Positions 2 to 60,455 of a DNA stretch of 64,000 nt are shown piece by piece. Under the pieces are notes generated by a model that saw nothing but the letters and a program-made list of their open reading frames with translations, had not been told where the DNA came from and searched no databases. Each line of letters starts with the position of its first letter. The first letter of the stretch is position 1. Made by a program: the position numbers and the translations under genes. The DNA is from Candidatus Obscuribacteraceae bacterium (GTDB lineage: Bacteria > Cyanobacteriota > Vampirovibrionia > Obscuribacterales > Obscuribacteraceae). The stretch lies in contig JBGAHS010000008.1 of assembly GCA_044226015.1 (NCBI GenBank), positions 192,001-256,000 on the forward strand. The letters run 5' to 3'.

Positions 2-3000
2 GTTGTGGGCGGTGACATCACAAATACTGGCGGAACGGGTTCAGTAGTGGTCGACTCTGCCACAGGCTCAGTAACAACAGCCAGAGTAGAAAGCCATGGC
101 GCGATCACACTGGGCAACACAAGCGGCGGCACTGGTGTCACCATCAACGGAGCAATCCTGAACACGGGCGGCTCTGGAAACATTCAACTTCTAGCCAACT
201 CAGGAGATATCTCCGGCTTACACACTCTAACGTCAGTCGGTGACCTCACCATTTCAAATATTAACGGCTCAATCGGTAGCACAACTGCAATCGGTAACTT
301 GTTTGGCGGTGGAGCTGGCAAGACCATCACGGTCAACGCAGGAAGCACAGGCAGAGTTGGCAGCATCACCAACGACAGCGCAAGCGGCAATGGTGGCACA
401 ATCACAGTCACCACAACTGCTGCCTTCCAATCGACCGGCGCTGTGAGCGCGCAGAGCACGGCCGGCAGTGCATTCAGCGGCGGTATCATCAGCATCAAGA
501 GCAGCTCAGGTACAGTTGAGGTCGACGGTTCCGTCAACAGCAACACAACCGGCACGGGCACTGCAGGTAGCATCAGCATCGATGCAGGAACAGGCACACT
601 CGAAATAAACAAAGGAAGCGCTGGCGCCAATGTCATTCAGGGAACGCTCAGCTCCGACAAGGGTAATGTCATTGTTCAGTCGAACAGCATTCTCTTGAGA
701 GGTGCTAGCCCAGCAATCACCGGACGCAACATCGGACTTAATGCACGCACCGGTGATATCCAGGCAGCAGTGGCTGGTCAGGGCGGTTTGAGCGCTACCA
801 ACAACATAGCGATGACTGCGGTGACAGGCATCGGTACTGTCGGCGGCAACCCAATAACCATCAGCTCTAGTGGCAGCACTCTGAGCTCAAAGACAAGCAG
901 CTCAGGTTCTACCTATATATCTGTAACTAGCGGCAACCTTACTGTCGGCAACGTTTCTGTCGGACCTGTTAACCCCAACACGGGCGTGCAGGCTCCTGGT
1001 TCTATTCAGATTGATGTACCGGGCAACCTCGCAATTCTCGATGGCTCGCCAATCAATACGACTGGTACAAGCCAGACCATCGACATTCACGCCAACAGCT
1101 TCACTGGCTCTGGCACAACAACAACCTTGATTGATGCTGGCAACACGGGCTCTGTCCTCATCGCTCCAACAACGAACGGACAAGCTATCGCACTGGGTGG
1201 CAGCGGCTACCTGAGCGGCACCATGCTATCCAAAATCAAGGCTCTCAACCTTCAGGTTGGTAACCTCGGCACTTACACCGGAAGCGTTACGCTCGCAGGA
1301 CTCATCAACAATGGCACGGCGGCTGCGGGTTCGACAGCTGGTTCTTACAACCTGTCGATTCTCAGCAATGGCACCATCGACACATCTGCGTTCACCATCA
1401 CTACCAATACAAGCAATCTGACGATCGATTCCGAAGAATCTACCAGCGGAACAGCAACCAAGGTTGGTGCCCTCATCGGCACTGGCGGAAATATCTCTGT
1501 CACTGGCAACAAGGGCGTCACACTTGCAGGCGTGATCAACAATGCTGGCACAGGCACCATCAGCGTACTTGCTAAGCAGGGCACGCTCGATGTTCAGAAC
1601 AACACAATCAGCACAACCGGCACGGGCACAGTCACCATCAACAACTTGAATGGTGCAATATCCAACGTCGGTTCTGTTTCAGGTGCCGGAGTGATCAATA
1701 TAGGTAATGCTAGCGGCACAACATCGATAAGCATAACCACCGGCACTATCGACAACACAGCTTCATCCACGAACTCCGCAGTCAACATTCTCAGCAGCGG
1801 AGCAATCAGCGCAGCGGGACGTAGCGTCAATTCTGACGGCGTCATCACACTGAGCGGCAACGGTGGAGTCACTATCGGTGGATTGAACAACTCAGGCTCT
1901 GGAGTTGCAAGTGCCATTCATGTCAACGATGGCACCGAAGGCGGTGCGGTATCAATCGGCGCAGTAAGCAGCGTCGGTTCAATCGCCATCGGCAACAACA
2001 GCAACACAGCTGGTGTCACCCTCACAAACGGGGCAATCGACAACAGCACAGCAAGCACACCGCAGTCGATTAGCATTCGCTCTAACACTGTTGGCATTTC
2101 TGGCAACGGACACAATGTCATTTCAACGGGAACCATCACTCTCAGCTCTAACTCAGGACCGGTCGTCATCGGTGCGCTCAATAACAGCGGCGTTGGCGCA
2201 AGTGGCGATATCTTCGTCAACTCCGGCAGTGAAACTGGTGCAATCACCGTTGATGCTATCAACAGTAGGGGAGACATCAATGTCGGCAACAGCACAGGCA
2301 CCGCTGGTGTAACCCTGACAGGTGTCATCAACAACTCTTCAGCAGCAAGCGCGAAGAATGTGACCATACTCGCTAACAACAGCGGTATCTCCGGTGCTGG
2401 TCAGACCGTCACCTCTATCGGCAACATCACTTTGAGAGCGCCAGGTGGAGTAAATATCGGAGCACTGAATAACTCTGGAGCATCGACTGCAGCTACCATC
2501 AATGTAAATGATGGAACACAGTCTGGCACAATCGCCGTAGCAGGAGCACTCAGCAGAGGCACAATCACGATCGGCAACAGCACTGGAACAAGCGGGGTCA
2601 CTATCAGCGGTGCTATCAGCAACGCGACGGCAGCAAGTGCACAGAGCGTTACTGTACACTCTGCATCTGGCGGCATCAGTGGTGCTGGACAAAGTATCAG
2701 TTCCATCGGCAGCATCGTCCTCGACGGAGTTGGCGGCGTAAACATCGGAGACCTGACCAACTCAAGCAGTACCACTGCAGCAGCAATTCAAGTCAACAAT
2801 GGAACTCAGAGTGGAGCGGTTGCAGTAGGCAACGTGAACAGCGTTGGCGCCATCAGTATTGGTAATAACACCGCCACAGCAGGAGTAACGCTGAACGGAA
2901 ACATCAGCAACGTAACAGCCTCTACACCGCAAAGTGTCAGCATTCTTTCTGACTCAGTGGGCATCAGCGGCGCTGGCAAGACGGTAAGCTCACTCGGCGG

Positions 3001-25390: not shown

Positions 25391-25412
25391 ACACACTGCA
25401 TCGCGAGATCAA

Positions 25413-25445
25413 GAAACCCGCCCGAGCCCAGCTCCGGCGGGTTTC
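25413..25445. terminator. Probable bidirectional intrinsic terminator between convergent genes
   Basis: GAAACCCGCC-C-GAGC-CCA-GCTC-C-GGCGGGTTTC: 10-bp perfect stem extended by 4 bp, starting 23 nt after the gene A stop. The stem ends in TTTC on + and TTTCTT on -. Confidence 0.8.
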
Positions 25446-25512
25446 AAACTTAGAAGACAGTTACTTACCCAGCTTTTGGATCTCATCAATTCCTAGCAGG
25501 GCAGCCGGTCTG

Positions 25513-25839
25513 TTAAAATTCTCTCCACCAGGCGGAGCCATCACTGTGAATCGCGGGAAACTCAATTTGAGTTCTTTCGCCTTCTCCGTCTTCTATAAAC
25601 CAATTCTCGTCAATGTCTTCAGGAATATCAAAAGGCGGGTCATTTTCTCGATTGCATTCAGTGGTCCAAAACTCCCAAATATGCCGGTAAGGATCTGCAG
25701 CAGGTGTCAGCTGAATTAGCCCGCCCATCCACGGAAAATCCGAATCCAAATTAGTTATGGTGCCGACAAGTTCAGAACCTCGGAAAAGCCTCAGCTGCTC
25801 CTTCCCGGTGAATGACGGCATGGGTCTGGAAACTGACAT
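25513..25839 (-). CDS. Small acidic, Trp-rich hypothetical protein (~108 aa)
   Basis: ATG at 25839 is preceded by SD-like GGAAGGGTGAGG. Protein-like sequence LRLFRGSELVGTI...SDFPWMGG...IHSDGSAWWR. Fills the gap between the giant genes and ends just before the terminator. Confidence 0.75.
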   Translation of the reverse strand: MSVSRPMPSFTGKEQLRLFRGSELVGTITNLDSDFPWMGGLIQLTPAADPYRHIWEFWTTECNRENDPPFDIPEDIDENWFIEDGEGERTQIEFPAIHSDGSAWWREF

Positions 25840-25943
25840 AGGAAACCTCACCCTTCCACTCGCAAGAACTTCTCAGGAATAACACCTTTACAAGCATTTC
25901 ATTGTGCCTAATAGCTCTGGCTCGTTGTATAGGCGTCCACCAC

Positions 25944-49900: not shown

Positions 49901-52900
49901 CTATATTGATGACTCCGCTGGAAAAGCCGCCGGAACCTGCGCCACCGATAACTAGAACCGTTATAGCGCCTGCGCTGCTCGGCGATATAAGAACTGTCTT
50001 GTCCGCTGTCACGCTCTGATCAGTCCCAAAAAGGAAATTGACTAGACCGCTAGCAGGCACAGCCAAGCGCACTGAGCCCGCTCCAGACGAAACATCGAAA
50101 GTTCCAACCCCGTGAATAGTGAGGTTGCTTGTGCTCTGCACTATCAAATTATTAGCAAGACCGCTATCACTACCAATGGTTCCATTATTGTTTAGTGCAC
50201 CACCATCAACATTGAGCATCAATGAGCCAGTAGCACTCTTCACTGTTACGCCGTTTACATGAATAGAACCGCTGCTGCTTACTGTGCTGTTTCCTCCTAG
50301 AGAAAGCACGTTGCCCGAATTACTCTGAGTAAAGCTGATACCAGCTGCAGCGGTTCCTTCAGTAAGGGAGAAGGTTCCACCAGTGAATCTGGCCGTGCCG
50401 GCTCCGCTTACATTTAAGGACAGAGCCCCGCTCGTCGGTGTGATGCTAACAGACTTGTTACCCGTGATGGTCTGGTTCATTCCAGCTGCAAGATTCAGTG
50501 TGTTTCCAGCGCTTGGCTGCAGCAAAATCGAGCCAGCCGCACCGCTAGACACATCAATGTTTCCGGTACCAGCAAGCGTGAAACCGCTTGTACTGGTGAC
50601 TTGGACATTGTTGCCAGCTCCTGAAGTACTGACTATAGAGCCGTTGTTTGTGAATGTGCCACCATTTACATTAAGAAGAACGTTTGCCGAGCTCTGAATA
50701 GTACCAGAGTTAGTAAGATTAGTTGAGCTGAGAGTTAGATTTCCTGTGCTGCTGACGGATACATTACTTATACCGATCGTTCCGCCAACGGAGTTGATAT
50801 TTGTAACGCCCGGCAAACTCAAAATCGCGTTGCCAGACGTTCTGGAGAAGTTAACGCCTTGAGCTCCGCCAAAATCATTGAATGTATAGGTACCGGTTCC
50901 AGTAAACGTTGCAGTGCCTGAACCACCAGAGACATTCACGTTGAGCGCGCCAGCAGTAGCAGGGGATACTGTCAAATTACGGTTGCCGGTGAGAGCCTGG
51001 CTCAGACCGACCGCCAGGTTGAGCGTGCCGCCGCCTGCAGGTCGCAGAGCAACGCTGCCAGAACCGCTGTTAGCATCGAGTGTGCCTGTGCCAGCCAGAG
51101 TTAAGCTGCCAGTGCTCTGAATGGTGATAGCACCAACGGTGCCACTAGTCGAGCGCAGTGTTCCGTTGTTAGTCAGCGTGCCACCATTCTCATTGACAGT
51201 GAGCGTGCCAGAGCTGGCAAGCACAGCACCAGTGTTCATCGTAATATCGTTGGTGCTGGTTACTGTTGTAGCACCCGGAAGCGTGAGAGTGTTTCCCGCA
51301 GTCGAGGCGCTGAAGGTGATACCACTTCCACTGCTGTCGGAGATCGTGTAAGCGGCTGTGCTGGTCAAGCTTGCATTTCCAGCCCCAGAGACATTGATAT
51401 TGAGAGTTCCAGCACCGTTCTGACTAATGGAAATAGGCTTGTTGCCTGTCACAATCGGAGCATATCCGGCGACGAAATTGAGGGTGCCCCCGCCACCTGG
51501 GCTATACCTGATACTTCCATTAACAGTGTTAGCATCTAGAGTGCCGTTTCCAGAAACAGTTAATGAGCCAGTGCTTTGAATTACTAAGCTGTTTGCGACA
51601 TTCGAAGTGCTTCGCAGAGTACCTAAATTACTTAGAGTGCCACCATTGGCATTTACTGTGAGAATACCTGAACTAGCTACAGTTGAGCCGCTAGCAGTCT
51701 GAATAGTTCCAGCACTGGTGAGTGCCGCAGCCGCTCCAAAACTCAGCACAGAGCCGGAACTAGCAGTGGTCAAACTGACTCCACCGCCAGCTCCACTGTC
51801 CGCCACTGTGTAGCCACTTCCACCAACAAAGGCGGCTGTGCCGGCAGCACCCGAAAGGTTCACCGTAAGAGCGCCGGACGACGATGGAACTATCGAAAGA
51901 TTTCCGGTTATATTCTGAGTAAAGTTGGTCGCTGGCAAGAATAACGTGCTACCACCAGCTGGACTCAGTTGAATCGTATTAGAGGAACCTGCATTAAAGC
52001 TACCAGTTAGACCCTGCACGGTGAGGTTCCCCGTGCTAGCAACTATTATGTTGGTTCCAGAAGCTGTGCTTGCTATAGTTCCAGAGTTTGAGAGCGTGCC
52101 GCCGTTAGCGTTAAGCGTCAATACGCCGGTACTGCTCACTGTCATAGTTGCTGGAACGGTGATAGTACCAGTCGTAGTTACAGCAACGGCACCTCCTAAC
52201 GCTAGGGTGCTATTAGCATTCGCTTGCGCAAAAGTGACGCCCCCACCAGCACCGCTGTCAGCTATAGAATAGGAACCGCCAGTGAACGTGGCTGTTCCTG
52301 CAGCACCAGCTACTCTCACCGTCAGAGCGCCTGCGCTGCTCGGCACCATGGAGACATTACTGGTGCCTGTTATGGTCTGATTCATTCCCGACGCAAACGA
52401 TATGGTGCCACCACCCGTTGCCGTCAAGCGAACCGAGCCTGAACCCGAGCTTACATTTATAGTACCTGCTCCAGTTAGAGTCAGCGCGTTGCCTGAACTC
52501 TGCATCACGACGTTGTTGGCTGTTCCCGAGCTATTTACGACACTGCCATTGTTGTTGATTTGCCCCGTCGGAGACACAGTCATCGTAAGAGTGCCAACAG
52601 TCTCAGACAGAGTGGCACCCACACCCACATTGATCTGCCCAGTGCCAGACACTGTGACTCCAGTGCTACCACCAAGCTGTAGAGTGCCATTGGTGAAACT
52701 CACATTGTTGTTGGCTCCGTTGGCAGCAATTGTATACCCACCACCAGCGAACACGGCAGTGCCCGATGCTGGTACGTTCAGAGTGATGCTTCCAGCTGCT
52801 AGCGGTGCCACAGACACTATCTTGCTAGAGCTTACCGTCTGATTCATGCCATTTAAGAAATTAACAGTGCCACCAGCTGCGGTACCTAGCGCAATATTGA

Positions 52901-55900
52901 CAGCACCAACAGAATTGGAAGCATCGAGCGTTCCGGTGCCAGTCATGGAGAAAGAGCCGGCAGTATTTTGAATTAAAAGTGCACTAGCGCTTGCAGAGGT
53001 CGTAGCGAGAGTTCCGTTGTTGGAGAGTGTGCCGCCAACTTCATTAACAGTTAAAATTCCAGCTGACTGAACTTTGACACCTGAAACAGTAATATCTTTC
53101 GCAGCACCGCCAACGACACCAATGGTTGTCGCACCACCAAAGGACAGGGTGCTTCCCGTATTAGCTTGTTGGAACGCGACACCACCCGAAGTGTTATCCA
53201 AAATCGAATAGGTACCGGTACCGGTGAATGTAGCTGTGCCAGCAACTCCGGACACGTTAACAGTTATTGCGCCACTCGAATTAGGAGTGATGCTGACATT
53301 CTTGTTACCAGTGAGAGTTTGATTCATTCCACTGGCGAAATTGACAGTGCCCCCACCAACTGGACTAAACCGCACTGAACCACCGACTCCCGAAGCGTCG
53401 ATAGCACCCGTTCCACTCACCGTGAAATTACCAGTGCTAGCAAAGGTGACCGAGTTCGCAGCAGCCAATGTGGATCGCAGAGTGCCACTGTTGACTACAG
53501 TTGCGCCGGAATTGGCTTGCAGCGTCAACTGAGCAGCACTTGAAACAGTGCCCGAGTTAGTAGTCGTGCCACCATTCTGCGTGATTACTGTAGCACCAGT
53601 GTTGGTCGAAGAAAGATTCGCACCAATGCTAATGTTGCCAGTCGCCGTGATGTTTGTTGGCCCTGCATGGTTGAGAATACTCGATGCGTTTGCTGCGTTT
53701 AGCGTGACCCCACCCGAAGCATTCTCTGTTATGTTCAAAATCCCAGTGCCAGAGAGAGAAGCTGTACCAGCAGCCCCTGATACATTTACAGTGAGCGAAC
53801 CTGCGCTGTTAGGCTGTATTGTGAGAGTTCTAGCTCCAGTATTCTGAGTCGTTCCACTGGCGAAATTAACAGTGCCGCCTCCAGCCGGAGAAATCAGCAC
53901 GGTGCCAGTACCGGCAGAAGCAGTCAGACTTCCCGTCCCACTAATCGTGAGGTTACTAGTACTCTGAACTGAGACAGCCGTTCCACCAGCAAAGCTACTT
54001 GAAACCGTTCCATTGTTAGTGAATGTTCCACCATTAGTATTGACTGTGATGACACCAGCGCTGTTGACTGTCAGCCCGGTGGCTGTCTGAATCGTACCAG
54101 TACTCGTGATGGCAGTTGTAGAACCGAAGCTAAGTGTAGACCCAGCGCTTGCAGTAGTGAAACTGACACCACCACCTGCACCACTATCGGTGACAGAAAA
54201 GTTGCCGGCACCAGTGAAAGACCCAGTACCAGCAGCCCCAGACATATTGACCGTGATGCTGCCGGCAGTCGATGGGACAATTGACAGGTTGCCGGTAACT
54301 GCCTGAGTGAGGTTGGCAGCTGCTAGGGATAAGGTGCCACCGCCGGCAGGGCTTATGCGCACGGTGTTGCCGGCTCCCGCATTCAAAGCGCCTGTAGTTC
54401 CCTGAACGGTAAGGTTACCAGTACTAGTCACTACGACATTGGTACCAGAAGCAGTGCTGGCGATGGTGCCGGAATTCGAGAGTGTACCACCGTTGACGTT
54501 CAGCGTGAACACGCCCGAACTACGCACAGTCATGTTGGCCGGAGTAGTTATGGTACCAGTCGTGGTAACAGATATTGGCGCCCCGAACGCGAGCGTACTA
54601 TTCACAGTTGCCTGCGCGAACGTGACACCACCACCAGCGCCACTGTCATTTATCGTGTAAGTTCCACCAGATAGAGTCGCAGTCCCAGCGGCTCCTGCTA
54701 CGCGCACGGTCAGTCCGCCAGCACTGCTAGGCAACATAGCTACAGTACTGGTACCAGCTACGGTCTGATTCGTCCCCGAAGGCAGGGTTATGGTGCCACC
54801 ACCGGTAGCTGTCATACGGACAGAACCAGAAAGAGTGTTTACATTTATATTGCCAGTTCCAGCTAATGTAAGATTGTTGCCAGAGCTTTGCATTACAAAG
54901 TTGTTTGCCGTGCCAGAACTATTAGCAATCGTACCGTTGTTGGTTATCTGTCCCGTTTGAGAGATATTAAAGGTTAAAGTACCTGATGTTTCTGAAATCG
55001 TGGCGCCGCTGCCGACAGATATCTGTCCGGTACCGGTTGTAGTAACGGTGGTGCTTCCGCCGAGCTGCAATGTGCCGTTGGTGAAGCCGACGCTATTGTT
55101 GGCGCCGTTCGCCGCGATTGTGTAGGAACCGCCAGTGAACGCAGCAGTTCCAGAAGCCGGAACATTCAAGGTAATGCTACCAGCCGCGACAGGGGCTACA
55201 GATAGCACCTTGTTAGAACTTATGCTCTGGTTTAGTCCATTCAAGAAATTGATGGTGCCGCCGGCGCCTGTACCTAGAGCGACGTTTGTGACTCCTGCAG
55301 AACTGCTCGCGTCTAGCGTTCCAGTTCCTGCAAACGAGAAGGAACCTGCGGTATTCTGAATAAGGATAGAATTCGCACTTGCGGAAGTAGAAACGAGGCT
55401 TCCATTGTTAGTAAAAGTACCGCCAACTTCATTCACCGTCAAAATTCCAGCGGACTGAACTTTAACACCAGAAACAGTGATATCTTTTGCGGCACCGCCA
55501 GCAACACCAATGGTCGTAGCACCACCGAAGGAAATAGAGCTTCCAGCATTTGACTGTTGCAACGTAACCCCACCTGATGTACTATCTGAGATGGAATAGG
55601 TTCCAGTTCCGGTGAACGTCGCAGTCCCAGCCGCTCCCGATACGTTGACAGTTATTGCACCATTAGTGTTCGGAGTGATACTGACATTTTTATTCGCAGT
55701 GATGGTCTGGCTCATTCCGCTAGCAAAGTTTACCGTGCCACCACCAGCAGGGCTTATGAGCACAGAGCCACCGACACCAGAAGCATCTAGCGCACCAGTT
55801 CCACTCACACTGAAGCTGCCAGTGCTTCTCAAAGCCACCGAGTTAGCCGCAGCCTGAGAAGAACGAAGAGTCCCGTTATTAATTATGGAAGCACCAGTAT

Positions 55901-58850
55901 TGGCTTGAATCGTCAGCGTACCAGCGCTCGAAACAGTACCCGAGTTAGTAATTTTTCCACCGGTCTGCGTGATCGTCGTCGCACCAGTGTTGGTTGACGA
56001 AAGATTCGCGCCGATGCTTATGTCGCCAGTAGCAGATATGCTGGTAGGACCAGATCGAGAAAGTACACTTCCAGAATTGCTGGCATTGAGAGTCACCCCA
56101 CCAGTTGTGTTCTCAGTGATGTTGACGGTTCCAGTGCCTGACAAAGAAGCCGTACCAGCAGCACCCGAAACATTGACCGTAAGCGCGCCCGAAGTATTCG
56201 GCTGAATGGTTAGCGTCTTCGTTCCTGTGTTTTGTGTAGTACCACTTGCGAAGTTAACCGTGCCACCACCAACCGGAGAAATCAACACAGCTCCAGTCGC
56301 GGCGGACGCAGTAAGCGAACCTGAACCAGCTATTGTCAGATTGCCAGTACTCTGCAGCGAGACAGCAGTGGCTCCAGCCAAACTACTGGATACCGTCCCA
56401 TTATTAGTGAACGTTCCACCGTTTTCATTTATAGTGATTAAGGCACTGCTCGCTAGAGTGGTAGCTGAGTTGACAGTGATGGGACCGGTGCTAGTCACGG
56501 TCGTTGCACTCGACGTCGTAAGTGTGTTACCGCCGGATAGGGTCACGCCGCTGCCCCCACCGCTGTCCTTCACGAGCACAGCACCGCCAGTGTTCAAGGT
56601 GGTAGCACCGGCCATTTGCACAGTGAGCAATCCGGCGCTGCTCGATGAAATCTCCAGATTCTTGCTATTGCTAATTGACTGATTTGTTCCGCTGGCAAAA
56701 CTCAACGTACTGGCACCAGGAACAGCGAACTTCACAGACCCGAGCGTACTATTGGCATTCATAGTACCGGTTCCAGCAATGGTCATACTGCTTGCACCAA
56801 CCAAACTACTTTGCACAACAATCGAGTTAGCTGCATTCAAATCGCTTTGCAACGTTCCATTGTTGGTAAATGTTGATCCATTTTGGTTTACGGTAACCGC
56901 ACCAGCCGTAGCCAATACGGTAGCGCCGGAATTAATGGTCACAGTCTTAGAACTCGTAATATCCACCTTGTTAGCGGCAGTGATGTTAGCACCGATAGTA
57001 GTGGCACCAGTCCCAGCGGTCAAAGTAACATTTCCGCCGCTTGTCACGGCATTGCTCAAGTTAATGGCACCTGCGTTAGTGGCACCAACAGTGGGAAGAG
57101 CAGAAAGAACTCCGTTGGTTATCGTGGTGGTACCACCAACAAAGCTAGCATTGGGGGCAGCAGCTGCGATGGTCACATTTCCGGTGCCGCTAGTCGAAAT
57201 GACTCCTGTCCCCGAGATCCCCCCAGTACCGGTCAATATCAGAATATTGCCATTTACAGCGCTCACCGTTCCTGCCGCGAGATTTATAGAACCTGTCCCA
57301 TTAGCCAGCAATGTGACATTACCGCCGGCCACCGCGGACAGGTTCAAGCGGTTACCCGCAGTTCCGATACTACCGTTGCCAGCGCCCGTGATCGTCAAGG
57401 TCGCGGTCGTGTTACCAGCGGTGTTGTTAAAAATCACATTGTTAGACGAGCCAGGAGTCGCAGTAAACTGTAGCCCTGCTCCGATAAAGAGATTCGCACC
57501 AGCAAGTGTAGATATAGTGCGGGTGCCATTGTTGGTGACATTGCCAGACGCCACGATGGCGATATCACCAGCGACCCCGGTGAGACTACCGAATATGTTG
57601 ACTGCGCCACCATTGTTGTAGTACGTAGGGTCGCCTGTGAGCACCTGATCGCCGACAGTGAGCAACCCGTCAGTTACAGAAATATGCACTTCGGAGCCGT
57701 AATTACTCAAAGCTCCTCTGATTTCGTCCATGTGTATGTTCATGGATTTGCCCTGGACTTTAATGCCACCGTCAGCCAGGAGTCGACCGTCCATCATCAA
57801 GACATTGGCGCTCTCCAACTCAGAAGGAAGAAGGTTCGAGCGCACGTTCACAGTGCCTGCCTCGAAGAGTCCGGTCTCCGAATTGATGCCACCCAGAGCT
57901 TCGATGACACCAGCCTTGTTGCTTAGAAACAAATCTGTGCTGGCACTGAGAGCATTGAGGTTTATCGAATTTAGCGCCTGAATCAAACCAGAATTCACAA
58001 TTGTTCCGGTTCCAACATTCAAGTTGATGTTCTGAGCTGAGAGCACAGCCTGACTAACACTGCCACTTATGTTACTGAGGGAACCAAGCGTTGCAATATT
58101 CAGCGTGCCAGGCGTCGTAATCATTCCCTGATTGACGAGGTTGCCTGCGATATTCAAGTTCATGCCCGAGGAAGAATATACACCAGGCATCGAATAGCCA
58201 GAAGGCAGGTGGGCACTGAGTAGACCACCAATACCTATGTTGAGACTACCAAGATTGAGAACCGCAGCCATGTTGGCAGAGTTTTGCAAGGTGTACATAG
58301 AACCCAGGATGTTGAGTTCACCGCTAACATTCAATGGTGTCGACGAATTGAAACCGACGGCGTGAAGAGCAACTCCAGCAGGAATAGAAAGGGCTTCGAA
58401 ATTTTGGACATTCTTGGAATTGAGGGTGAAACTCCCACCAACTGCCGCTCCTTGATTGTTCAAAACGAGTGTCTGGTTACCGCGCATCGCTTCGAATACG
58501 GCGACATACTGCGAAGGAGTGACAGCCGCGCCCGGCATCACAGTCATTGTGGTACCACCAGATATGACACCGTTGTGAGCACTGCCACCGACCGTGATGT
58601 TCACCGGCGCAGTGTTTTGCGAGCTAAAACTCGCCGAAGTCCCCGACAAATTGAGATTGTTTCCGGTACCAGAAACCGTCCCGCCACTAGGAACCGAATA
58701 TGGTGTCGCTCCCGGACGAGACTGCGCTAATGTCTTGATGGGTGCTACGTAAGGCCCGATGAGTAGCATCGAAGACATTATCCACACCAACTTGTGCCCA
58801 AGACTGCGCTCTCCAAAAGCGGCAGCCTTAACTAAACGGGTTCTTTTCAT
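25944..58850 (-). CDS. Giant FHA-like beta-helical repeat surface protein B (10,968 aa) with signal peptide and conserved C-terminal FecR-like domain
   Basis: 32.9-kb uninterrupted ORF. ATG at 58850 with AGGT 5 nt upstream. Basic n-region, hydrophobic h-region and TLA|QS cleavage-like site. Several repeat families; C-terminus homologous to gene A. Confidence 0.92.
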   Translation of the reverse strand: MKRTRLVKAAAFGERSLGHKLVWIMSSMLLIGPYVAPIKTLAQSRPGATPYSVPSGGTVSGTGNNLNLSGTSASFSSQNTAPVNITVGGSAHNGVISGGTTMTVMPGAAVTPSQYVAVFEAMRGNQTLVLNNQGAAVGGSFTLNSKNVQNFEALSIPAGVALHAVGFNSSTPLNVSGELNILGSMYTLQNSANMAAVLNLGSLNIGIGGLLSAHLPSGYSMPGVYSSSGMNLNIAGNLVNQGMITTPGTLNIATLGSLSNISGSVSQAVLSAQNINLNVGTGTIVNSGLIQALNSINLNALSASTDLFLSNKAGVIEALGGINSETGLFEAGTVNVRSNLLPSELESANVLMMDGRLLADGGIKVQGKSMNIHMDEIRGALSNYGSEVHISVTDGLLTVGDQVLTGDPTYYNNGGAVNIFGSLTGVAGDIAIVASGNVTNNGTRTISTLAGANLFIGAGLQFTATPGSSNNVIFNNTAGNTTATLTITGAGNGSIGTAGNRLNLSAVAGGNVTLLANGTGSINLAAGTVSAVNGNILILTGTGGISGTGVISTSGTGNVTIAAAAPNASFVGGTTTITNGVLSALPTVGATNAGAINLSNAVTSGGNVTLTAGTGATTIGANITAANKVDITSSKTVTINSGATVLATAGAVTVNQNGSTFTNNGTLQSDLNAANSIVVQSSLVGASSMTIAGTGTMNANSTLGSVKFAVPGASTLSFASGTNQSISNSKNLEISSSSAGLLTVQMAGATTLNTGGAVLVKDSGGGSGVTLSGGNTLTTSSATTVTSTGPITVNSATTLASSALITINENGGTFTNNGTVSSSLAGATAVSLQSTGNLTIAGSGSLTASAATGAVLISPVGGGTVNFASGTTQNTGTKTLTIQPNTSGALTVNVSGAAGTASLSGTGTVNITENTTGGVTLNASNSGSVLSRSGPTSISATGDISIGANLSSTNTGATTITQTGGKITNSGTVSSAGTLTIQANTGASIINNGTLRSSQAAANSVALRSTGSFSVSGTGALDASGVGGSVLISPAGGGTVNFASGMSQTITANKNVSITPNTNGAITVNVSGAAGTATFTGTGTYSISDSTSGGVTLQQSNAGSSISFGGATTIGVAGGAAKDITVSGVKVQSAGILTVNEVGGTFTNNGSLVSTSASANSILIQNTAGSFSFAGTGTLDASSSAGVTNVALGTGAGGTINFLNGLNQSISSNKVLSVAPVAAGSITLNVPASGTAAFTGGSYTIAANGANNSVGFTNGTLQLGGSTTVTTTGTGQISVGSGATISETSGTLTFNISQTGQITNNGTIANSSGTANNFVMQSSGNNLTLAGTGNINVNTLSGSVRMTATGGGTITLPSGTNQTVAGTSTVAMLPSSAGGLTVRVAGAAGTATLSGGTYTINDSGAGGGVTFAQATVNSTLAFGAPISVTTTGTITTPANMTVRSSGVFTLNVNGGTLSNSGTIASTASGTNVVVTSTGNLTVQGTTGALNAGAGNTVRISPAGGGTLSLAAANLTQAVTGNLSIVPSTAGSITVNMSGAAGTGSFTGAGNFSVTDSGAGGGVSFTTASAGSTLSFGSTTAITSTGTIQTATGLTVNSAGVITVNTNGGTFTNNGTVSSSFAGGTAVSVQSTSNLTISGTGSLTASAGTGTVLISPAGGGTVNFASGTTQNTGARTLTIQPNSAGSLTVNVSGAAGTASLSGTGILNITENASGGVTLNAANASSILNHAGPTNITATGNISIGANLSSTNTGATVITQNGGTTTNSGTVSSAAQLTLQANSGATVVNSGTLRSTLAAANSVTFASTGNFTVSGTGAIDASGVGGSVRFSPVGGGTVNFASGMNQTLTGNKNVSITPNSSGAITVNVSGVAGTATFTGTGTYSILDNTSGGVAFQQANTGSTLSFGGATTIGVVGGAAKDITVSGVKVQSAGILTVNEVGGTLSNNGTLATTSASASALLIQNTAGSFSMTGTGTLDASNSVGAVNIALGTAAGGTVNFLNGMNQTVSSSKIVSVAPLAAGSITLNVPASGTAVFAGGGYTIAANGANNNVSFTNGTLQLGGSTGVTVSGTGQINVGVGATLSETVGTLTMTVSPTGQINNNGSVVNSSGTANNVVMQSSGNALTLTGAGTINVSSGSGSVRLTATGGGTISFASGMNQTITGTSNVSMVPSSAGALTVRVAGAAGTATFTGGSYSIADSGAGGGVTFAQANANSTLALGGAVAVTTTGTITVPATMTVSSTGVLTLNANGGTLSNSGTIASTASGTNIIVASTGNLTVQGLTGSFNAGSSNTIQLSPAGGSTLFLPATNFTQNITGNLSIVPSSSGALTVNLSGAAGTAAFVGGSGYTVADSGAGGGVSLTTASSGSVLSFGAAAALTSAGTIQTASGSTVASSGILTVNANGGTLSNLGTLRSTSNVANSLVIQSTGSLTVSGNGTLDANTVNGSIRYSPGGGGTLNFVAGYAPIVTGNKPISISQNGAGTLNINVSGAGNASLTSTAAYTISDSSGSGITFSASTAGNTLTLPGATTVTSTNDITMNTGAVLASSGTLTVNENGGTLTNNGTLRSTSGTVGAITIQSTGSLTLAGTGTLDANSGSGSVALRPAGGGTLNLAVGLSQALTGNRNLTVSPATAGALNVNVSGGSGTATFTGTGTYTFNDFGGAQGVNFSRTSGNAILSLPGVTNINSVGGTIGISNVSVSSTGNLTLSSTNLTNSGTIQSSANVLLNVNGGTFTNNGSIVSTSGAGNNVQVTSTSGFTLAGTGNIDVSSGAAGSILLQPSAGNTLNLAAGMNQTITGNKSVSITPTSGALSLNVSGAGTARFTGGTFSLTEGTAAAGISFTQSNSGNVLSLGGNSTVSSSGSIHVNGVTVKSATGSLMLNVDGGALNNNGTIGSDSGLANNLIVQSTSNLTIHGVGTFDVSSGAGSVRLAVPASGLVNFLFGTDQSVTADKTVLISPSSAGAITVLVIGGAGSGGFSSGVINIDDGGSGAGVTLTTTHQPSVLLLGSSSSITSTGTVTVGAGSTVSSSGLLTFNLDGGTLVNSGVIASTAGAGANILLQSSSGFTLQGNGSFNASSGVGDVNLSATAGGVINLEAGLSQSLQGNLVFTPSDNSNLNVNIKGAGTASFTGGTLYTFLAVGANNINFTGDNSGNQLSLGGNTAVTVNGGNVNVTSGVTLSSSGTLTVNANNNGTLTNNGTLVSTAGTAGNLVIQTDSSLTLAGSGSLNASAGGSVAITAPGAGIINLASGLNQTIVGNRNVSISTSSAGTLNLNVVSGIATFTGSGNYSISDGGGAGVNLTRTSSGSTLNFGGNTSVTSSSDISLQNGLTLQSAGTITINENGGKFSNNGTVKSTNGTAGAITIQSSSGLTLAGTGTLDAATGSGSVAIKPAGASTLSIESGTVQTIAGGAGLAISSGSAGGLKVNVSGPAGVASFVGTGATTITDDGSSGGISFTQANSGSTFSVDGALTISSSGDITIDGPGSGVTVSSGGNLTINENGGTLQNGGTLSSVANNANSISIQSTGDLTLRGTGSLNASGALGSIKIQSGANGTVNFESGMNQTVLSGKQVSIGSSSGSSKFNVSGAAGTAQFTGGSFTVTEGTAGSGVSFSKTAAGSSSIQFGGDTVVSVSNSSAITVNNGVSVGSSGSLTLSASNSTINNNGTLFSTAGIADAITLTSSPSTSLTLSGIGTLDANSGSGSVLINAGSNLILSNGLSQSIAGGKNVDVLSQAGSLNVDVNGSAAFNGNGVYTFAAASGQSITISSTGGSLSVGGNLTLDASTGNLTLSDVTVGTVNGDAQVNVGSQFDIGASTLQSGKSNGSINVSGSTGALTLVGNGSLKLTQNAANNKILVSSGVSGTGTLSFAGNLIMDVGAGTTAVDAISIQAASVNLATGTTQTFANGANATLAPGAASSLSVIAQGAAGTATLAGSGIVTVQSNGVAESVSFSASSSPSVLQVNGGLTVNSGASGSVSVNSVELTSGSSLLINTSSLTNSGTISSSAAAGSISVQSTGDLTLSGNGVYRDTQNAALNNISFIAGPSGTGTLTITGDNTLDVGNATSALDAISFEASTINLQSGSTQTVSNDASVSFSPGSSSSLKVNVSGLSGTASFVGLGKYSVSSNGSGNTVEFASDAASSTLLFGGALSADAGSTGTVSVDAGLTLSSAGSISVNAGTIANNQALVSTGSNSLILLQNLGGNLVLDGNGLYQISTDSANNFIQVIAGATGAANLSLNGSSTFDVGNANVSNNAVQFTAGQINIKVGTTQTVLNNSALTLKSGASDLNLLMLGGTGASNFIGASAYTLTATGNLSFTGLATPAQFNFDNNLKVQAGTNSSITVSSGVTLNASGSMTLDAGTIFNNGSTISSSAIGAVVLQNTGGASSLTLAGNGNYQTSSNNAANKILVQSGSAGAGQIFVTGSNTFDVGTGTSSANAVEFQANSIDLSTGTTQIIANGAKLTISLSGAAATAINLSGAAGNVDFTGASSYTINSNAATNTLDFSSDNASNLRFDNALSVTNTADVSIASGLETSAALTLSSLSNNGGIFVTGHVSGATGVNVSSNGSGIIDIADGAFVSSTNASISFKSGALDSNSSGAINAGTGVVSLLQNGSNTDVSINGGSATYGVSAATLANITASKLVIGDSNTGAVTQVGSADFSVPGPGSYDLVINGASYDGTGSSMLIGSKNLTITASTGAAVMGAVTGTSGFVDVSASNDAITLTDNLSAGKVTLLSGVNIQVSSDVTVQTFGAAGNDIVLNMLAPASLVQTLGSNLSLMSAGALSVSGGVDTTQIVGGGGDFTASAADGTLSISGVINSYGNGAIGVNNGGAIDLSASNGSISVGAISSDGGPSSGNAGLISVVASGAVTVAGAISAKSVSASGGIVTLKSSGSSIQVDGSINNQGAASGPSILISSASASPLQIGGSSGVNKIAGLISSNGSVEIQNSGDIQLFSAGTTISASASVGQISLVSTNGAISANSSTEGGLSASAVLLSAKTGVGSVTGAVPISLTGAGNTKVAVQVTGPNSEVYLLSTAAGLTTDALSSASTGSIIGVNSTGDIRLDVNAGSTLTVSSGNTISTSGSGSTITINADKLVFGSSTPSIDAGSSGTIIITPTTLSQNITIDNTGTQYLTTTNSQLTQFQALNVQIGNNSFAGDITVGAGGLLLAGNDGSVAAGTAPGAFNITFISSGKFSSKNVLIDEGVNDFTVKVGGTVELGAVGVQPNASGSVSISGNGVTLYDNINAGSLSIDPGTGTLVQNGGTLSSNSLSINANPNDNVVLNIAVSDLTVTQSLAGTGSITITNSKELLSNGISTAGLGGFNYTGTADGGTTLTNSITTDGPLSITNTGNNAQITINGALSGSSVSLSSTGTGDISGTGTVTAKNDLTVNSPNGDVNLNVATPYITVTQDINGTGSVTITDSVALIGNGASTAGSGGFFFTDTAGGAGAINITNTITTKGDLTLSGAGGTDSGIVLGADISGAAVTLLSTGTGTITQATPGLDVTATSSLTLTAGSGNVDLNVTTPSLTISQSGAGAVNIIDSQALSTTGPITAGSGGLSINVTAGGAGAITTGASISSTGAVVLTGVGGSDSGIVLGGDVTGKSVTLTATGSGNIGSTVAVDITASNGDVQLTANNLTFANSSTIDAGSQSVYIQPTANQSIAVNGAAIGTLTIGQNLVDNITAGQLVIGNTSSTGAIQVNGAGDTMNANFDLVFLNNPTTGGSFTNNGTIALNANDLSVTVGGSITSGAVTGTGSIVSLTGTDIALSGAIDSSGGKVTLSATDGGVTQSAGVVSAAELTINATDTVANLNIAVPFLTISQTGSASVTLTNSVALTGNGVISVGSGGFFFTDTADGGINLTNTITSSGPVSLVNTGNNAGIAIGAAVSGSIVTLTSTGTGDISGAGVVTGSSSIALTSPEGSINLSVDTPVLSTSQNVSGSGSVFIQDASSVQVGADSTAGSGGFTLISNGAGPVGISTAGKINSSGSIDLQALGIGAGITIGKDISGSDVSLTASGGDVSVGTSVSVSGTNSVIVSMQGGTLSNNGTLTSSSGGILIDSSSDLTFSGTGSLSSATGTSIILPGNSTLSLPSNLMQTVTGDLSMGVSTPGSLSVDVTGAAGTVQFIGGGNYKISSSGANALNFNQDNSGSGISFGGSLNLTSSGDINNNGLTLASSDVMVINENGGQLLNNGTLRSTAGVANDILITSSSSLSLAGVGNLDASAGNGSVKISIAGGSSFKFETGSVQTLVGDKDLTIETNSPGNMFISTGGATGNATFAGTGKYTVQNLQGGIAFAQFSSDSSITFGGDTTINNANDLISIQGLTIVSNKTLTVNENDGIVFNNGVLRSGAGTPNDLVIQSSGSLFYLGTGKLDAAGSALIGVGAAEVLNLQAGTTIDMVGNKDLTLSSPGLLTVNVAAASGTVSFVGTGKYTVSGVGVNLSSDFASGVLSFGGDTEINGGTGTVALDTKTEARSAGDMMLDASAIDNAGLVSSTKSSGLITLSNSAGDLTVGGGGVFTNTTNSLGNQIVISANSGKSAVTFSGDNTFDVGNANTAANAIEILATQINLPAGTTQTIASDANVTMHPGSSSDLNIVVTGGPGNASFVGNGTYSISSVGSGNGVSFKSTLSNQLSLGGDVNVTSSSTGTIHVDSTFTLDSANGAVMMDASNIDVAGTVSSSSSTGLIVLQNSSGDLTVGGGGSFIETQNSASNQIIISAGSAGTGKITVLGDNTFDVGTATGTADAIQFVGSQLNLPVGSQTFLNNPNVIIQPGSSSSISINVSGPGVANFVGTGTYTIQSVGAANSVNFGGTAASQVNFAGDLNVQGGSDVSVGSGITVSSDNSMTVSALTIHNSGKLSANNLGLNVNDTLVSNNGVYTADAIAVNSASGKSLTILGNATFDATNGGQTDLNSNGDITFGDGVTTATQLFNGDANFNTALGKGTVTVTLNDSVVGNNTITVNASTLIVNGSITANPLIFNSAGAGTIANNTGGALDLKNVGGLVFNGQSLAILSAGDIIDTNASDTIDLSGDALNPDGGSLLLVAGFNFSPNAAAPYQFNNTVYTLGSAGTGSVDLANVDVNTSGFAGGGNAGSVQAYASKGSVNLGDITAVGQGLAGAGGSVTLVGETGVAVGSATLTGGSSSGNLSITTAAPVLNNGPVMIGNGTIIKGSLSASNVISNGNVTLNGAVDANSIGVNAGSIAMGSNAGTLNSLADVSLKTTGGNLSSAGGSLDISAIGKTTIDLSGAAIDLSSVTGQSVSIDSKNGVDLKGSSASAAAVTTDGGAVSLNSSAASVLTGAITTSSLSVSGADISLTAAGAVTVNGGLDASSGAASGGNVTVGSSGSTIEVDGAINNTSVGNGAAFVKLSSAASNLNLNSSSAAANSIKGIISSNGDVTVSAHGVILSGVTAVSSTSGIGIDAIDGSITASSAGAGKLAAPEVILLGTSLGTSATPLTLDSASTTLASSATGASAVTNLTSTGDLLVGSGVSVGSLTASGISSDGDIQLNVANNLQLDAAIIRNSSGNIDIHADSLNSWAATPTLIDAGNTGNVTFTPSTNNLAVDLGGAYLSQSQLNQIRAQNLQVGNSTSYTGTVNLGGSLNSGLAAAGTQNGSMNLTIQSAGTVDTSAFSLSVGPNKLDVSAKLVSVGDINASSGAITISGTNGVSLNGDINATAASKISITASNNQIDGTGAKVASGSGDILINIASGTISGIAAVSTAGSVLIGTSDGSSSTASGVSIGSVQGDGKVTVISSTGGVAVGAVSSNGAVVLNTLSSGDVTLSGDVSGASISINAVSSGAINSSVAVALKSGSGGVSLSSNSLGLKTGSSVNAGGSTVLIQPNANQSIGVNGSTAETFVVSNDLMSNITNASSVTIGNKTSTGSLTFYGSLSPTYALNLYNAGAVTMNSGSSLSMGANNLNIESGSTASLQTISGSANTVSVKATSITLNQNINLAGSSTLTLTSTSADIAQTAGVLTSADLQVSSAGKANFKSAVSGSITLGSNGDATVNNVGTLTAFSGNSAGKLTLTNDGGVTLSSALFAANGLDLSLSAGNTFNENGFKISSTNSDISIVSDHFTGTGPIDAGSATVTFSALTSPVTFAGSAGGLDLSTGLLNSITASKLIVGSLSNTASLTVASDYDLSSRYDLTLQAGGALHTDGHTLTIGSKDLTISSTGAVTLGGISSSAAKVIVNGDSITSTVDFGSATDTTTLQSASGDINGTGRVTADLLTLNSTGGSVDLAVSANRVDGLVANTFKLSGNSTLNIGTVSATNAVTLSADKISVLASGTLSGSSVTLLGTTVNGSGSQQMVLSNSGAIVATTGGITVDTAPGQDLLLTGNGSGSFKIAAGQQMNFNATDNTGVHPSMILGPGNQTFFVGTGSSPGGDVNFTAAGGPNSSITITNGTTYDFPNDYTHVNLTLGKFFGNPSQFDIHKTTNPNSTLSITGAFTGTIANSTGPIDLGNLTKISFAGPIAILSATDIINSGGNLTISLANVGGTGGDLTLIAGFNFTPTTSGTIGPNNIDYTLSSPNSGSGSINVPNVNFTTSGSDSGGSFFAVANGGSVKIGNVDTSGGTGTGGKVTIIGNGISTGDINSSSILATNGGAVVLNSASSAVLSNTSPGAMHVIDGVVTGGTFLPGTQAGVVSVGAVSTGSAAVTISGASASSSGVITASSLNANANGGNISLLTNVSNSMVLSATGNITVNNASALSSLTTTVGGSFTFNNTGDLTLSSGVAAPGGITISSTGTLNIGSNSLVSTTSPISISADDLVLGTGVIDAGAGTVSISAASSSQAITLGIAGAGLNLSTAELQSIKAGTLVVGSSSNNGGININAVLDVSGLYNLQLNQGSTGGLNASSAINVGSNSLTATVGGTASFSSVLSNGSSIQLTGGSLAISASFGSITDTTKLSSTNGDLTVSGTVTAASLTMSASNGKLNAVTNVNGVMSASSSGTGADISITNDGDLSSLTVAAVGGAFNLTNAGNVKLASNIAAPGGILVNLNSLGSTLDYGAFNFSSTNSAISLTADAFSGTGSINAGANGTVSIAPFNQNLPINLLSTGVGLNVSAATLNTVSAKSVTIGSATLLSTITLGANLDVSGKYNLSLLAGGSTGSVSTVGQTLSSSDTNISIVGGAGGSASLGSINAPQVNVSAGSIAVSGTVGTGSNQVSLTSLAGDLSSSGAGVVGGSDVTLAANGGSVNLNSAITGTLQVSASGAANSSVSITNTGVLQLNGTASGASGSFSITNAGNLTLSSALSAAAGVTVKVGAGNTFSNAGFQISSSNSPINITVDQYTLSGANPLNAGSGTVTIAPATNSQVITLVGSGGTAGTGLNFGNTELNGITAGTLVLGSNTATGGVVVSGTLTLSNTYNVSLVQGNGSFSSANAITLNGGGDFSVSLSKGAITTNLITQALDSGAVSLQTDGSITLTGAPASLGDSAHSLTILAGTGSISGLPSGGITPRRDASGNGGTIIIGGVGLPTTYVLDASGISGGSGGAAGYVRGETTAFPSSGLQLMIGGSNQGTAIISNGGDLTFDPASTLVLTSGQGNGASYVLTAGAVSTGNLLVNGALNSAGNGVGSKGGDITLNSNSKTAFIINSSSAKNGTKGSLSVAGNGAANGSITVTNKGGGITSSAQALTAVSNVTFDTTGAAAGTISIGKAIGTAGSTTSIKLIAGGTGAISPGSNLLSAATVDFVGGTGAISASTVANTVSVNTASNSKAVVSITNKVTGVSPLTLNASAVGGTLSVTNNGGSITANGALAGSSITLKSAGTNGDIILNGNLTGSTSGTVTLTATGTGVITGSGVIQGKTVTLTTGTGGQVGTGTSTSSAITVRAGTLSANTSGLININNLGLSGTTGITISAAKTTGSSLTVRSANGLTFTPSVTGATSVILTAGGTGVLTVNGSLGNTSSTASINLGTASGSIVSKGTLSTQSSGSILLSSSVGTGSIGSSSSPVKLTTGTLGISTSSGVINISSSNKGTTQVSNLVTSGSISYTGAGPSNFGAVKGSNLTFKLAGNNTFASNITANGLTASKLGAISITGAASTTVAGNIVANGAVTLSGSGNIALNSVSTPSGVISITQTTGGTASFGNLSGSSVTVTLKPTGSVLFNGSVSASTGAVKITETGSTTPSTSFGFGMNISAATTVSVTSTGALTLNNVTASNGSLAIVSKGATVTGALQSLGTKGVITVTQSATSVPLTLGALTAAGTSVTVTNSGSSTTVTGPVQAVTAVTIQNNKGNASIALNGNVSTSSTSGTIKLTAIGSGNITDSSGTISAKTVTLGSGSGAIGTGTLLATALNLNTSSVSAATTGTINLNSVGSAPVTLSTANTAGAGNTFTMSSASNLTVTPTLVNAESIAISTTGVASVTLKGGTLGGAVNTNSVSITTVNGDINGTATISSKAGSGQVTLTSTTGAIQGSSTAALKLNTPNLVSATTGGAVNLSNSYSNTTTGAAYGNISGSSISVASANKSTFNGAIDTSSAAGTGAVSIIQTAGLLTLNGSIISKGTAAKVTLQEKADAAGAGIVLGANSSISTEVTTPKTGSTFPLPGQVTIVVGSTVPAPSAGTQPASAPVINVDLSGATGPNNKVYWGTNNTFVVNGTNNNLAVIGNTAIQFQSGSKGTITLGGSLNITADPPAVLSAPTLSVATLSAGSKTSTAAFVAPTYASSSKVAETSVSLVSPSVSSVSFAAPPGVSKQWIEPIPVSSNALVNPSNPKTLYGGVTETELTNAGESLSTIVGAPAFEASMSESGSFVVPLASERELGLGSAGSQLKSVTTAANQRKMLALKSGTFVFAPFQDTTIETQFGRVDIDAKSVAIVFTSARGLAVFCLDDQHRDAVKVHSGHKTITLSPGRHLAITGSNVKEFGEINPIETVGYRGISSVELGNGLKAFNAEFSIPSALGSIKSLRMLFNSKQTEAQKLSAHIAKTVAAMSQVRKDSERFQQVLRPRMAAFAPQE
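40800..43010 (-). repeat. About five ~115-120-aa coding repeats in gene B ('LNVxTPxLTxxQ...TAGSGGFxFT')
   Basis: Units LNIAVSDLTVTQ..AGLGGFNY, LNVATPYITVTQ..AGSGGFFF, LNVTTPSLTISQ..AGSGGLSI, LNIAVPFLTISQ..VGSGGFFF and LSVDTPVLSTSQ..AGSGGFTL. Boundaries approximate. Confidence 0.7.
45300..56900 (-). repeat. Array of ~24 ~160-aa coding repeats in gene B ('NxNGGTLxNNGTLxS...QSTGxLTxxGxGxLDAS...GGGTxNFASGxxQ...VNVSGAAGTAxF')
   Basis: Counted by eye from the recurring NGGT(L/F)xN(N/S)GT motif. About five more diverged copies lie at ~38300-40750. Confidence 0.75.
51650..56430 (-). repeat. Tandem duplication of a 796-aa (2,388 bp) five-unit block in gene B
   Basis: Three independent markers are each offset by exactly 2,388 bp: FASGTTQNTG (56250/53862), VQSAGILTVNEVGG (55441/53053) and STASGTN (54445/52057). 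Confidence 0.9.
58725..58850 (-). other. Predicted long (~42 aa) Sec signal peptide of gene B
   Basis: MKRTRLVK... basic n-region; LVWIMSSMLLIGPYV h-region; KTLA|QS putative SPase I site. Confidence 0.65.
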
Positions 58851-59776: not shown

Positions 59777-60334
59777 ATGAAACCAGAAATAATTGTGATT
59801 GGAGCATCGCTTGGAGGACTGATGGCATTGGAAGAGTTGCTCGCAAACCTTGATGCTACAATGAGCGTTCCAATAGCCATCGTGCAACATCGCTGTAAAA
59901 ATGAAGGACAAAATTTACTAGCAGCACTGCTCCAAAAACACACATCGCTGACTGTTGTGGAAGCTAAAGATGATGACGAGCTGCGGGGTGGCACAGTCTT
60001 TATCGCGCCACCTGATTTACACTTAGTGGTTGAACGAGGACACTTCAACCTCTCTGAGGGCCCACCTGTGAATTACGCTCGCCCCAGTGTAGATCGTTTG
60101 TTCGAAAGCGCAGCCTACTCGTATGGCAGGGCTGCGCTTGGCATAGTACTAACGGGCGGCAACACGGATGGAGCAGTCGGCTCGCGTACAATCAAAGAGA
60201 ATGGTGGAACTGTGATTGTGCAAGAATTGGAAGAATGCGAAGACACACACATGCCGAGAGCAGCCCTCGCAGCAACCTCCGTTGATCGCATACTTAGATT
60301 GCGTGAGATTGCTGCACATCTAAACGCGCTATAA
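59777..60334 (+). CDS. cheB: Stand-alone CheB-type methylesterase (no receiver domain)
   Basis: Motifs IVIGASLGG (catalytic Ser), IVQHR (His), RPSVDRLFESAA, GIVLTGGNTDGA (Asp) and MPRAAL. AGGAAG RBS upstream. Confidence 0.93.
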   Translation: MKPEIIVIGASLGGLMALEELLANLDATMSVPIAIVQHRCKNEGQNLLAALLQKHTSLTVVEAKDDDELRGGTVFIAPPDLHLVVERGHFNLSEGPPVNYARPSVDRLFESAAYSYGRAALGIVLTGGNTDGAVGSRTIKENGGTVIVQELEECEDTHMPRAALAATSVDRILRLREIAAHLNAL

Positions 60335-60366
60335 GACAGTTTGTTGGCACGAATGCTCATCGATTG

Positions 60367-60455
60367 GAATGGATCAGTGCTATAGAGTAGATTGGATCAG
60401 AACTATAGAAAGATTGGATCAGAAATATAAGAAGATTGGATCAGAAATATAGAAG
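60367..60455. repeat. Four tandem 22-23-bp direct repeats (consensus GATTGGATCAGAAmTATAGAAr)
   Basis: GAATGGATCAGTGCTATAGAGTA (60367), GATTGGATCAGAACTATAGAAA (60390), GATTGGATCAGAAATATAAGAA (60412), GATTGGATCAGAAATATAGAAG (60434). Confidence 0.9.

Follow-up and report, generated by a model that had tools for sequence, protein, structure and literature searches.

The region analysed is a stretch of 64,000 nucleotides of an Obscuribacteraceae genome (the window), most of which is occupied by two giant open reading frames, A and B, that converge tail to tail (Table 1). The initial annotation described them as a pair of paralogous proteins of >8,460 and 10,968 aa; both are real and paralogous, and its count and one of its lengths need correction, as A comprises 14,391 aa and the two genes belong to a family of 50. 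The start of A lies 17,785 nt ahead of the window (G000:C12 from 174215), so that its signal peptide and N-terminal head are encoded upstream. A and B are 47% identical over their first 655 aa and 41% identical over their last ~2,000 aa, their middles giving no alignment at the cut-offs used, and G+S+T+A+N account for 58–70% of each 500-aa block in the rods of both. The hairpin just past the A stop (−25.6 kcal/mol, z −6.5) received no call from the terminator scan and is likely a terminator between the two convergent genes. The 112-aa ORF behind B has no Pfam match and may represent an accessory gene or a small gene inserted here. Pfam matches elsewhere in the window are limited to a stand-alone CheB methylesterase, a Ser/Thr kinase (730 aa) and a YfcE-type phosphoesterase, located upstream of B (window 59777-63932).

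Table 1. Features of the two giant genes and the candidate partner gene (window positions unless a contig is given).
Feature	Position	Strand	Remarks
Giant A, 3' part	2..25390	+	8,462 of 14,391 aa; open frame leaving the window at the 5' side
A C-terminal ~2,000 aa	19391..25387	+	41% identical to B 9011-10967
A Asp-Pro, D14078-P14079	24446..24451	+	ITADPP; end of the A rod
A FecR-fold tail	24788..25387	+	52% identical to the tail of B
Strong hairpin	25413..25445	+	just past the A stop
Small ORF	25513..25851	-	112 aa, behind B
Giant B	25944..58850	-	complete ORF, 10,968 aa
B FecR-fold tail	25947..26546	-	modelled as a beta domain like the PupR juxtamembrane subdomain, then helices
B low-complexity linker	26547..26915	-	~110 residues, predicted disordered (pLDDT <50)
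B Asp-Pro, D10644-P10645	26916..26921	-	follows the final cap strand immediately; candidate release site
B cap	26922..27287	-	conserved terminal beta-strand module of the rod (C-terminal model)
B variable rod	27288..57509	-	~10,000 aa; degenerate modules of ~153 and ~184 aa
B conserved head	57510..58652	-	residues 67-447; modelled as a beta-helix; TPS secretion domains are the closest structural matches
B head Asp-Pro, D407-P408	57627..57632	-	GDPT; invariant columns in a 59-row alignment, turn inside the modelled helix
B Sec signal peptide (likely)	58725..58850	-	residues 1-42, basic then hydrophobic, TLA before QS; by eye
Candidate barrel	G000:C11:696019-697485		two paralogues in the source genome; picked by eye from a strand-score list

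The source genome is metagenome-assembled (8.19 Mb, 92% complete), and misassembly had been raised as a concern in the initial annotation. Read comparison over 20 kb (window 15001-35000) gave no sign of it: one contig of run X1, possibly the origin of this DNA, spans this stretch, and run X2, which comes from an independent study, covers it with four long pieces that contain substitutions and zero indels. The X2 differences listed inside A (n = 35; 24 further differences exist) comprise 23 synonymous and 12 non-synonymous changes and no stops. At a depth <5, indels confined to single contigs occur over the same stretch in both low-depth runs, X3 and X5. As tested over window 15001-35000, A and B are real genes. 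The two main runs containing the sequence are labelled bioreactor and activated sludge; no RNA run is among those listed as containing it.

Iterated profile searches identified 50 proteins in the source genome that share the head (1,470–14,400 codons); together they amount to 202,564 aa, or 7.4% of the genome. A common tail of ~180 aa ends 48 of them and is also carried by 15 ORFs devoid of the head. Within the order, profile searches detected the tail in 98 and the head in 70 of 107 Obscuribacterales genomes; the tail is absent from all 250 other genomes of the phylum searched, and the named loci with the head (24 of 24) are titled Obscuribacterales, Obscuribacter, Melainabacteria or Cyanobacteria bacterium. 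Among the genomes searched, the family is restricted to Obscuribacterales, where members of up to 14,495 aa occur in other genomes. Clusters at 50% identity matched by the tail profile number 2,730; ten were looked up, and the three that carry a name are all "hypothetical protein". No significant match was obtained with Pfam and NCBIfam for the head of B, both tails and ~9,800 aa of the B rod, or with Pfam for the first 5,000 aa of A, and PDB sequence searches with the head, the tail and the candidate barrel returned nothing relevant. No published description of the family was found in a literature search of mainly open-access main texts, in agreement with the proposal of the initial annotation that the family is undescribed. 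Clustering of the genes that neighbor the family members here and at 24 related loci yielded no constant partner; the candidate barrel adjoins a family gene at one of these 24 loci. The source genome also encodes a second set of giants of 4,500–7,800 aa (G000:C12:364608-387932, C9:323696-341383, C11:406378-421578 and C3:280331-294016), which are charged, have no signal peptide and are unrelated to the fibre family.

Judged by eye, the N-termini of both A and B are signal-like, and the signal peptide previously assigned to B likely comprises residues 1-42. The head was modelled (~390 aa, 59-row alignment) as a continuous beta-helix with a pLDDT of 94 and a pTM of 0.92. When this model was compared with 48,161 chains, TPS secretion domains took the first three places, in alignments that begin at their first residues: HMW1 (Z 20.0, rmsd 3.1, 265 aligned), EtpA (Z 19.9, rmsd 3.3, 264 aligned) and HxuA (Z 19.2, rmsd 3.1, 259 aligned). 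The next are an autotransporter passenger (Z 18.2) and a tailspike (Z 17.8), the TPS margin being 1.8–2.2 Z. Foldseek returned no match at E <0.001 for either the head or the tail model. The sequence tests of the TPS family gave a negative outcome: PF05860 has no matches in the source genome (the identical search was positive in 50 of 161 phylum genomes) and matches 0 of 41 head rows, the NPNG motif, a type Vb feature as described in PMC5422565, does not occur in the head consensus, and the first 260 head residues scored a probability <1% against a profile of 30 cyanobacterial TPS domains. An Atlas search with the head gave best scores <0.9, a lead only. As modelled, the head is TPS-like in fold, yet it is no TPS member by the family's sequence tests. 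Its Asp-Pro pair, which a pattern search found in 40 of the 50 members of the source genome, may have a structural role, since it sits in a turn of the modelled helix rather than at a boundary.

The absence of several export and anchoring signals had been noted in the initial annotation and was verified. B and the portion of A inside the window contain neither NPNG nor LPxTG, and inspection by eye of the first 700 residues of A revealed no NPNG. The same parts of A and B contain no canonical RTX nonapeptide, with a single GGxGxD in B. The domain searches that had been proposed gave no TPS or autotransporter profile match for A or B.

We infer that the rod is a beta-helix, the B model extending into it up to residue 520. 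The beta-helical structure previously ascribed to the giants is upheld for the modelled head, the models covering the two ends of B only (~8%). Autocorrelation of the rod gave no clean rung period. Beta-helix rungs comprise 20–26 aa and rise 0.48 nm; with such rungs, the rod would be roughly 200–250 nm long in B and 260–340 nm in A. Past the cap, the second Asp-Pro pair is a candidate release site; Asp-Pro self-cleaving proteins are cut at the D-P bond. In 66 of 89 relatives the pattern [AG]DP[PLIV] is located 40–300 aa ahead of the tail, vs. 0 of 75 in a control window, and the second Asp-Pro is found in only 21 of the 48 tail-bearing members of the source genome. Eight complete tail-less ORFs were collected from relatives: three stop ≤5 residues from the cap end, one of these exactly on the Asp, a fourth stops 33 residues past the cap end, and four give no cap match. 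The ORFs that stop at or near the cap end suggest that the linker, which is mildly acidic, and the tail form a detachable unit. In a glycine-rich subgroup (G000:C8:541062-556619, C9:40408-71392, C7:517169-528235, C6:580640-591502 and C3:89122-99243) the rods contain 26–29% glycine and probably do not form an ordinary beta-helix, and a P-V/I-A-F/Y motif before the tail replaces the second Asp-Pro.

The tail model matched two FecR-type periplasmic domains (Z 8.6, rmsd 3.4, 114 aligned; Z 8.5, rmsd 3.1, 108 aligned), with the third-best structural match at Z 3.5; the tail also gave a weak PF04773 match (E 0.013, one copy) and an Atlas score of 0.91. The similarity is confined to the juxtamembrane subdomain and ends at PupR residue 250, helices taking the place where the STN subdomain would follow. 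The initial annotation found no C-terminal barrel in either giant, and indeed the tail is modelled as a soluble FecR-fold domain; the terminal letters AFNNQ (A) and AFAPQE (B) were confirmed. Two canonical FecR-domain genes of the source genome (G000:C1:1005681-1009640 and C7:691923-695933) are each followed by genes for an ~800-aa membrane protein and a response regulator. Apparent tandem FecR-like C-terminal domains occur in the family members at G000:C12:494476-518889, C10:380440-404661, C6:333698-340066 and C10:194401-199497, and small secreted proteins with two FecR-like domains were also found (L118-L120, L124).

For beta-helical giants of Gram-negative bacteria, the way out of the cell is thought to be a machine of the Omp85 family (TpsB, or BamA with an attached barrel). 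The source genome has a single Omp85, in a bamA-skp-lpxD-like cluster, no TpsB in its 92%-complete sequence (no ShlB match) and no PF03797 match at E 1e-10; it also encodes two secretins and many TolC-family genes. The lack of a TpsB partner, stated earlier for the window, extends to the 107 genomes of the order, which have one Omp85 each where found and in which the weak ShlB matches (12 of 12) fall on the BamA gene. The claim that the giants have no recognizable secretion route stands as regards TpsB and is qualified by the TPS-like fold of the head and by a candidate partner pore elsewhere in the genome.

This candidate was chosen by eye from the list of a rough strand score that ranked Gly-rich proteins first; a search by C-terminal aromatic residue found BamA and missed the barrel, which carries a C-terminal extension. 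It has no Pfam or PDB match, the porin matches among its aligned rows being weak (FomA-like in 5 of 42 rows, best E 0.016; MetA-pathway barrel in 1 of 42). Twelve alternating strands were read by eye from the alignment consensus, and the protein is, from its sequence, probably a 12-stranded outer-membrane barrel.

The barrel is present in 97 of the 107 Obscuribacterales genomes and absent from the 250 other phylum genomes searched. Tail and barrel occur together in 96 genomes and are jointly missing in 8, with the tail alone in two and the barrel alone in one; the nominal p of 1e-9 for this co-occurrence is overstated by kinship, since related genomes are non-independent. The 8 double negatives belong to four genera, in three of which other members have both genes; secretins are found in all 8 and BamA in 5. 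As BamA is missing in 10 of the 107 genomes, only three of which are among the 9 tail-negative genomes, and as all 8 double negatives have secretins, genome incompleteness does not explain the joint absence. All 70 head-bearing genomes have the barrel, and none of the 10 barrel-negative genomes has the head. About 27 genomes combine tail and barrel in the absence of the head, so that an older function of the pair, unconnected with the export of fibres, is possible.

Barrel and family genes are also linked by position in relatives. A family gene lies ≤9.5 kb from 23 of 40 barrel loci vs. 1 of 20 control regions; the loci were chosen for long contigs among the matches listed (150 of ~270), two of them were previously known to lie near tail matches, and the controls are regions at a distance of 100 kb in 11 of these genomes. 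For 11 of 43 barrels the immediate upstream neighbor, in the same orientation, is a tail-bearing gene, and an OmpH/Skp gene occurs in 9 of the 40 loci vs. 0 of the 20 controls. On metagenome contigs a family gene was found in 48 of 79 barrel loci and 23 of 60 barrels follow a tail gene immediately, in the same orientation, in a set biased to relatives of a linked barrel, without its own control and possibly overlapping the organisms already counted. None of the three barrel genes of the source genome is beside a giant gene; by clade, 18 of 21 barrel rows have a family neighbor in one, compared with 7 of 22 in the other, to which two of the source-genome barrels belong.

Other barrel loci differ in their composition. 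One paralogue of the source genome (G000:C8:340215-344167) has a low-complexity C-terminal extension of ~700 aa and is directly behind a Skp-like gene. A locus at G000:C9:602749-608472 (L221, L126) comprises a diverged barrel gene, a gene of 1,103 aa and, 3.5 kb from the barrel gene, the gene of a 313-aa tail-bearing protein. This protein combines a membrane-type N-terminus with a poly-Pro stretch, a TonB- or FecR-like topology that could span the periplasm. A separate TPR gene is present in 5 of the 40 barrel loci (L160, L162, L182, L191, L192), mostly with a Skp gene and often beside the start of a giant gene, an arrangement that recalls a split TPR-plus-barrel translocon.

On balance, this evidence tips toward A and B being members of a 50-gene fibre family that is served by an export and tethering system of two-partner-like type, with a putative new pore, and the export route is probably undescribed. 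The proposal of the initial annotation, an undescribed family of giant surface filaments or adhesins with its own export and anchoring logic, is supported, and no outcome named there as refuting it was obtained. A fuller version, to which we give slightly less than even credence, is a secretion system of Obscuribacterales' own, in which a stand-alone, POTRA-less, 12-stranded barrel would recognize the FecR-fold tail as a C-terminal sorting domain, translocate and hold beta-helical fibres of ≤14,000 residues, 50 of them in one genome, and release them by Asp-Pro cleavage. In the favored two-partner-like reading, the chain would cross the inner membrane by Sec and be kept unfolded by a Skp-type chaperone; the head would then pass first through the barrel and nucleate folding outside, by analogy with TPS domains, for which head-first threading with outside folding is the favored model in the account of PMC5422565. 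The rod would fold outside, reaching roughly 200–340 nm with rungs of the size given above, as the linker remained in the pore and the tail folded on the periplasmic side, docked on the putative barrel and held the fibre. Cleavage at the Asp-Pro after the cap would be a possible means of release, and shedding would be expected of members that have no tail. The pore of a POTRA-less, 12-stranded barrel is narrow, which is a point against the proposed export. Adhesion or formation of the floc matrix is the likely function of the varied rods, as suggested by their size and composition, by the lack of enzyme or toxin domains in the scanned parts and by the bioreactor and activated-sludge labels of the runs.

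Several other readings were weighed. The tail might dock first, with BamA and the barrel together moving the rod out C-terminus first as a hairpin, as in an autotransporter split into two genes; the cap would then be an autochaperone and the Asp-Pro the cleavage site, and the final topology would be the same, reached in the opposite direction and with BamA needed. Such a route would account for the tail, found in nearly the same number of genomes as the barrel (98 and 97 of 107), being its constant partner rather than the head (70), and for the fusion of the tail to unrelated low-complexity N-terminal parts; several barrel genes are also ~20–30 kb from bamA, and twelve strands is the size of autotransporter barrels according to PMC5422565. 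Its difficulty lies in the intact head-bearing proteins that have no tail (2 of 50 here, and also in relatives) and in the lack of profile similarity between the barrel and autotransporter barrels (probability 0.6%, in a small set of 8), and it is considered rather improbable.

Somewhat more doubtful is that barrel and tail constitute an anchoring or cell-surface-signalling pair, the fibres leaving through a different machine, for instance a secretin. The substrates of secretins fold before export, in the periplasm, which makes secretin export implausible for rods of 10,000–14,000 aa, and secretins are present in 105 of the 107 genomes, including all 8 without tail and barrel. FecR-type domains do bind outer-membrane transducers, as reported in PMC7186176, but the tail corresponds to the juxtamembrane subdomain alone, and the same source describes partner binding by PupR as needing the STN subdomain as well. 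One secretin of the source genome carries an STN-like domain, the other is 1.7 kb from a family member, and the small membrane-type, poly-Pro tail protein near a barrel gene would suit a signalling role; against this, the signals of the fibres look cleavable, and a cytoplasmic anti-sigma part is missing.

It is very unlikely that the family represents a highly diverged ordinary TPS system, transported by BamA alone or by an unassembled TpsB, with an incidental link to the barrel: the TPS-like head fold and the 92% completeness of the source genome would allow it, but one Omp85 per genome and ShlB matches on BamA only, across 107 genomes, and the linkage of the barrel (23 of 40 vs. 1 of 20 controls) argue otherwise. 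An assembly artefact or non-coding low-complexity frames, conceivable for a metagenome-assembled genome with a read check of 20 kb, are scarcely credible in view of the indel-free, mostly synonymous differences in an independent study, the conserved domains at both ends and the similarly long members (up to 14,495 aa) in other genomes.

If true, the favored two-partner-like reading would amount to a new route of export and tethering, in which an order without TpsB pairs its giants with a small, unrelated barrel and with a FecR fold put to new use. With 7% of the genome devoted to it, the family may be the main surface investment of these little-studied non-photosynthetic relatives of cyanobacteria. 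Head, tail and barrel provide three new profile families for thousands of proteins now called "hypothetical".

Compared with known systems, the beta part of the tail has the fold of the juxtamembrane (CJM) subdomain of FecR/PupR sigma regulators, whereas it lacks their STN (replaced by helices), anti-sigma domain and membrane helix and ends a secreted giant. The Slam (type XI) translocon consists of a TPR domain and a DUF560 barrel; DUF560 is not among the Pfam matches of the 42 barrel rows. Unlike CdiA, which has a variable toxin after a VENN-type motif and an immunity gene behind, the family has one conserved C-terminal domain in 48 of 50 members. It differs from type I/RTX adhesins in the absence of a canonical nonapeptide from the window parts and in the N-termini, signal-like by eye. 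In LapA-type adhesins a giant surface protein is held by a periplasmic retention module and freed by cleavage, and the periplasmic domain and cleavage proposed here would act similarly; LapA-type proteins leave by type I secretion, carry RTX and Ig-like repeats and are anchored at the N-terminus, in contrast to the Sec signal, beta-helix and proposed C-terminal anchor of this family. Giant genes of uncultured bacteria with links to secretion genes have also been described in Omnitrophota, whose proteins include transmembrane, peptidase and SecA domains and whose loci are type II secretion-like (10.1101/2023.11.21.568195); the main text of that report makes no mention of Obscuribacterales or FecR. 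With type Va autotransporters the family would share a beta-helical passenger, the linker, the likely 12-stranded barrel and possible cleavage at the passenger end, whereas here the barrel is a separate gene without PF03797 or a profile match and the passenger ends in a soluble domain. From type Vb systems the family departs in lacking NPNG, PF05860 and a TpsB/Omp85 partner with POTRA domains, in possessing a FecR-fold tail, and in its scale, with 50 passengers of up to 14,391 aa and three unlinked candidate pores in one genome. It resembles type Vb TpsA proteins (HMW1, HxuA, EtpA) in having a likely signal peptide, a modelled N-terminal beta-helical secretion-domain fold and a long, probably beta-rich rod, and in an outer-membrane partner that is separately encoded, here a candidate barrel.
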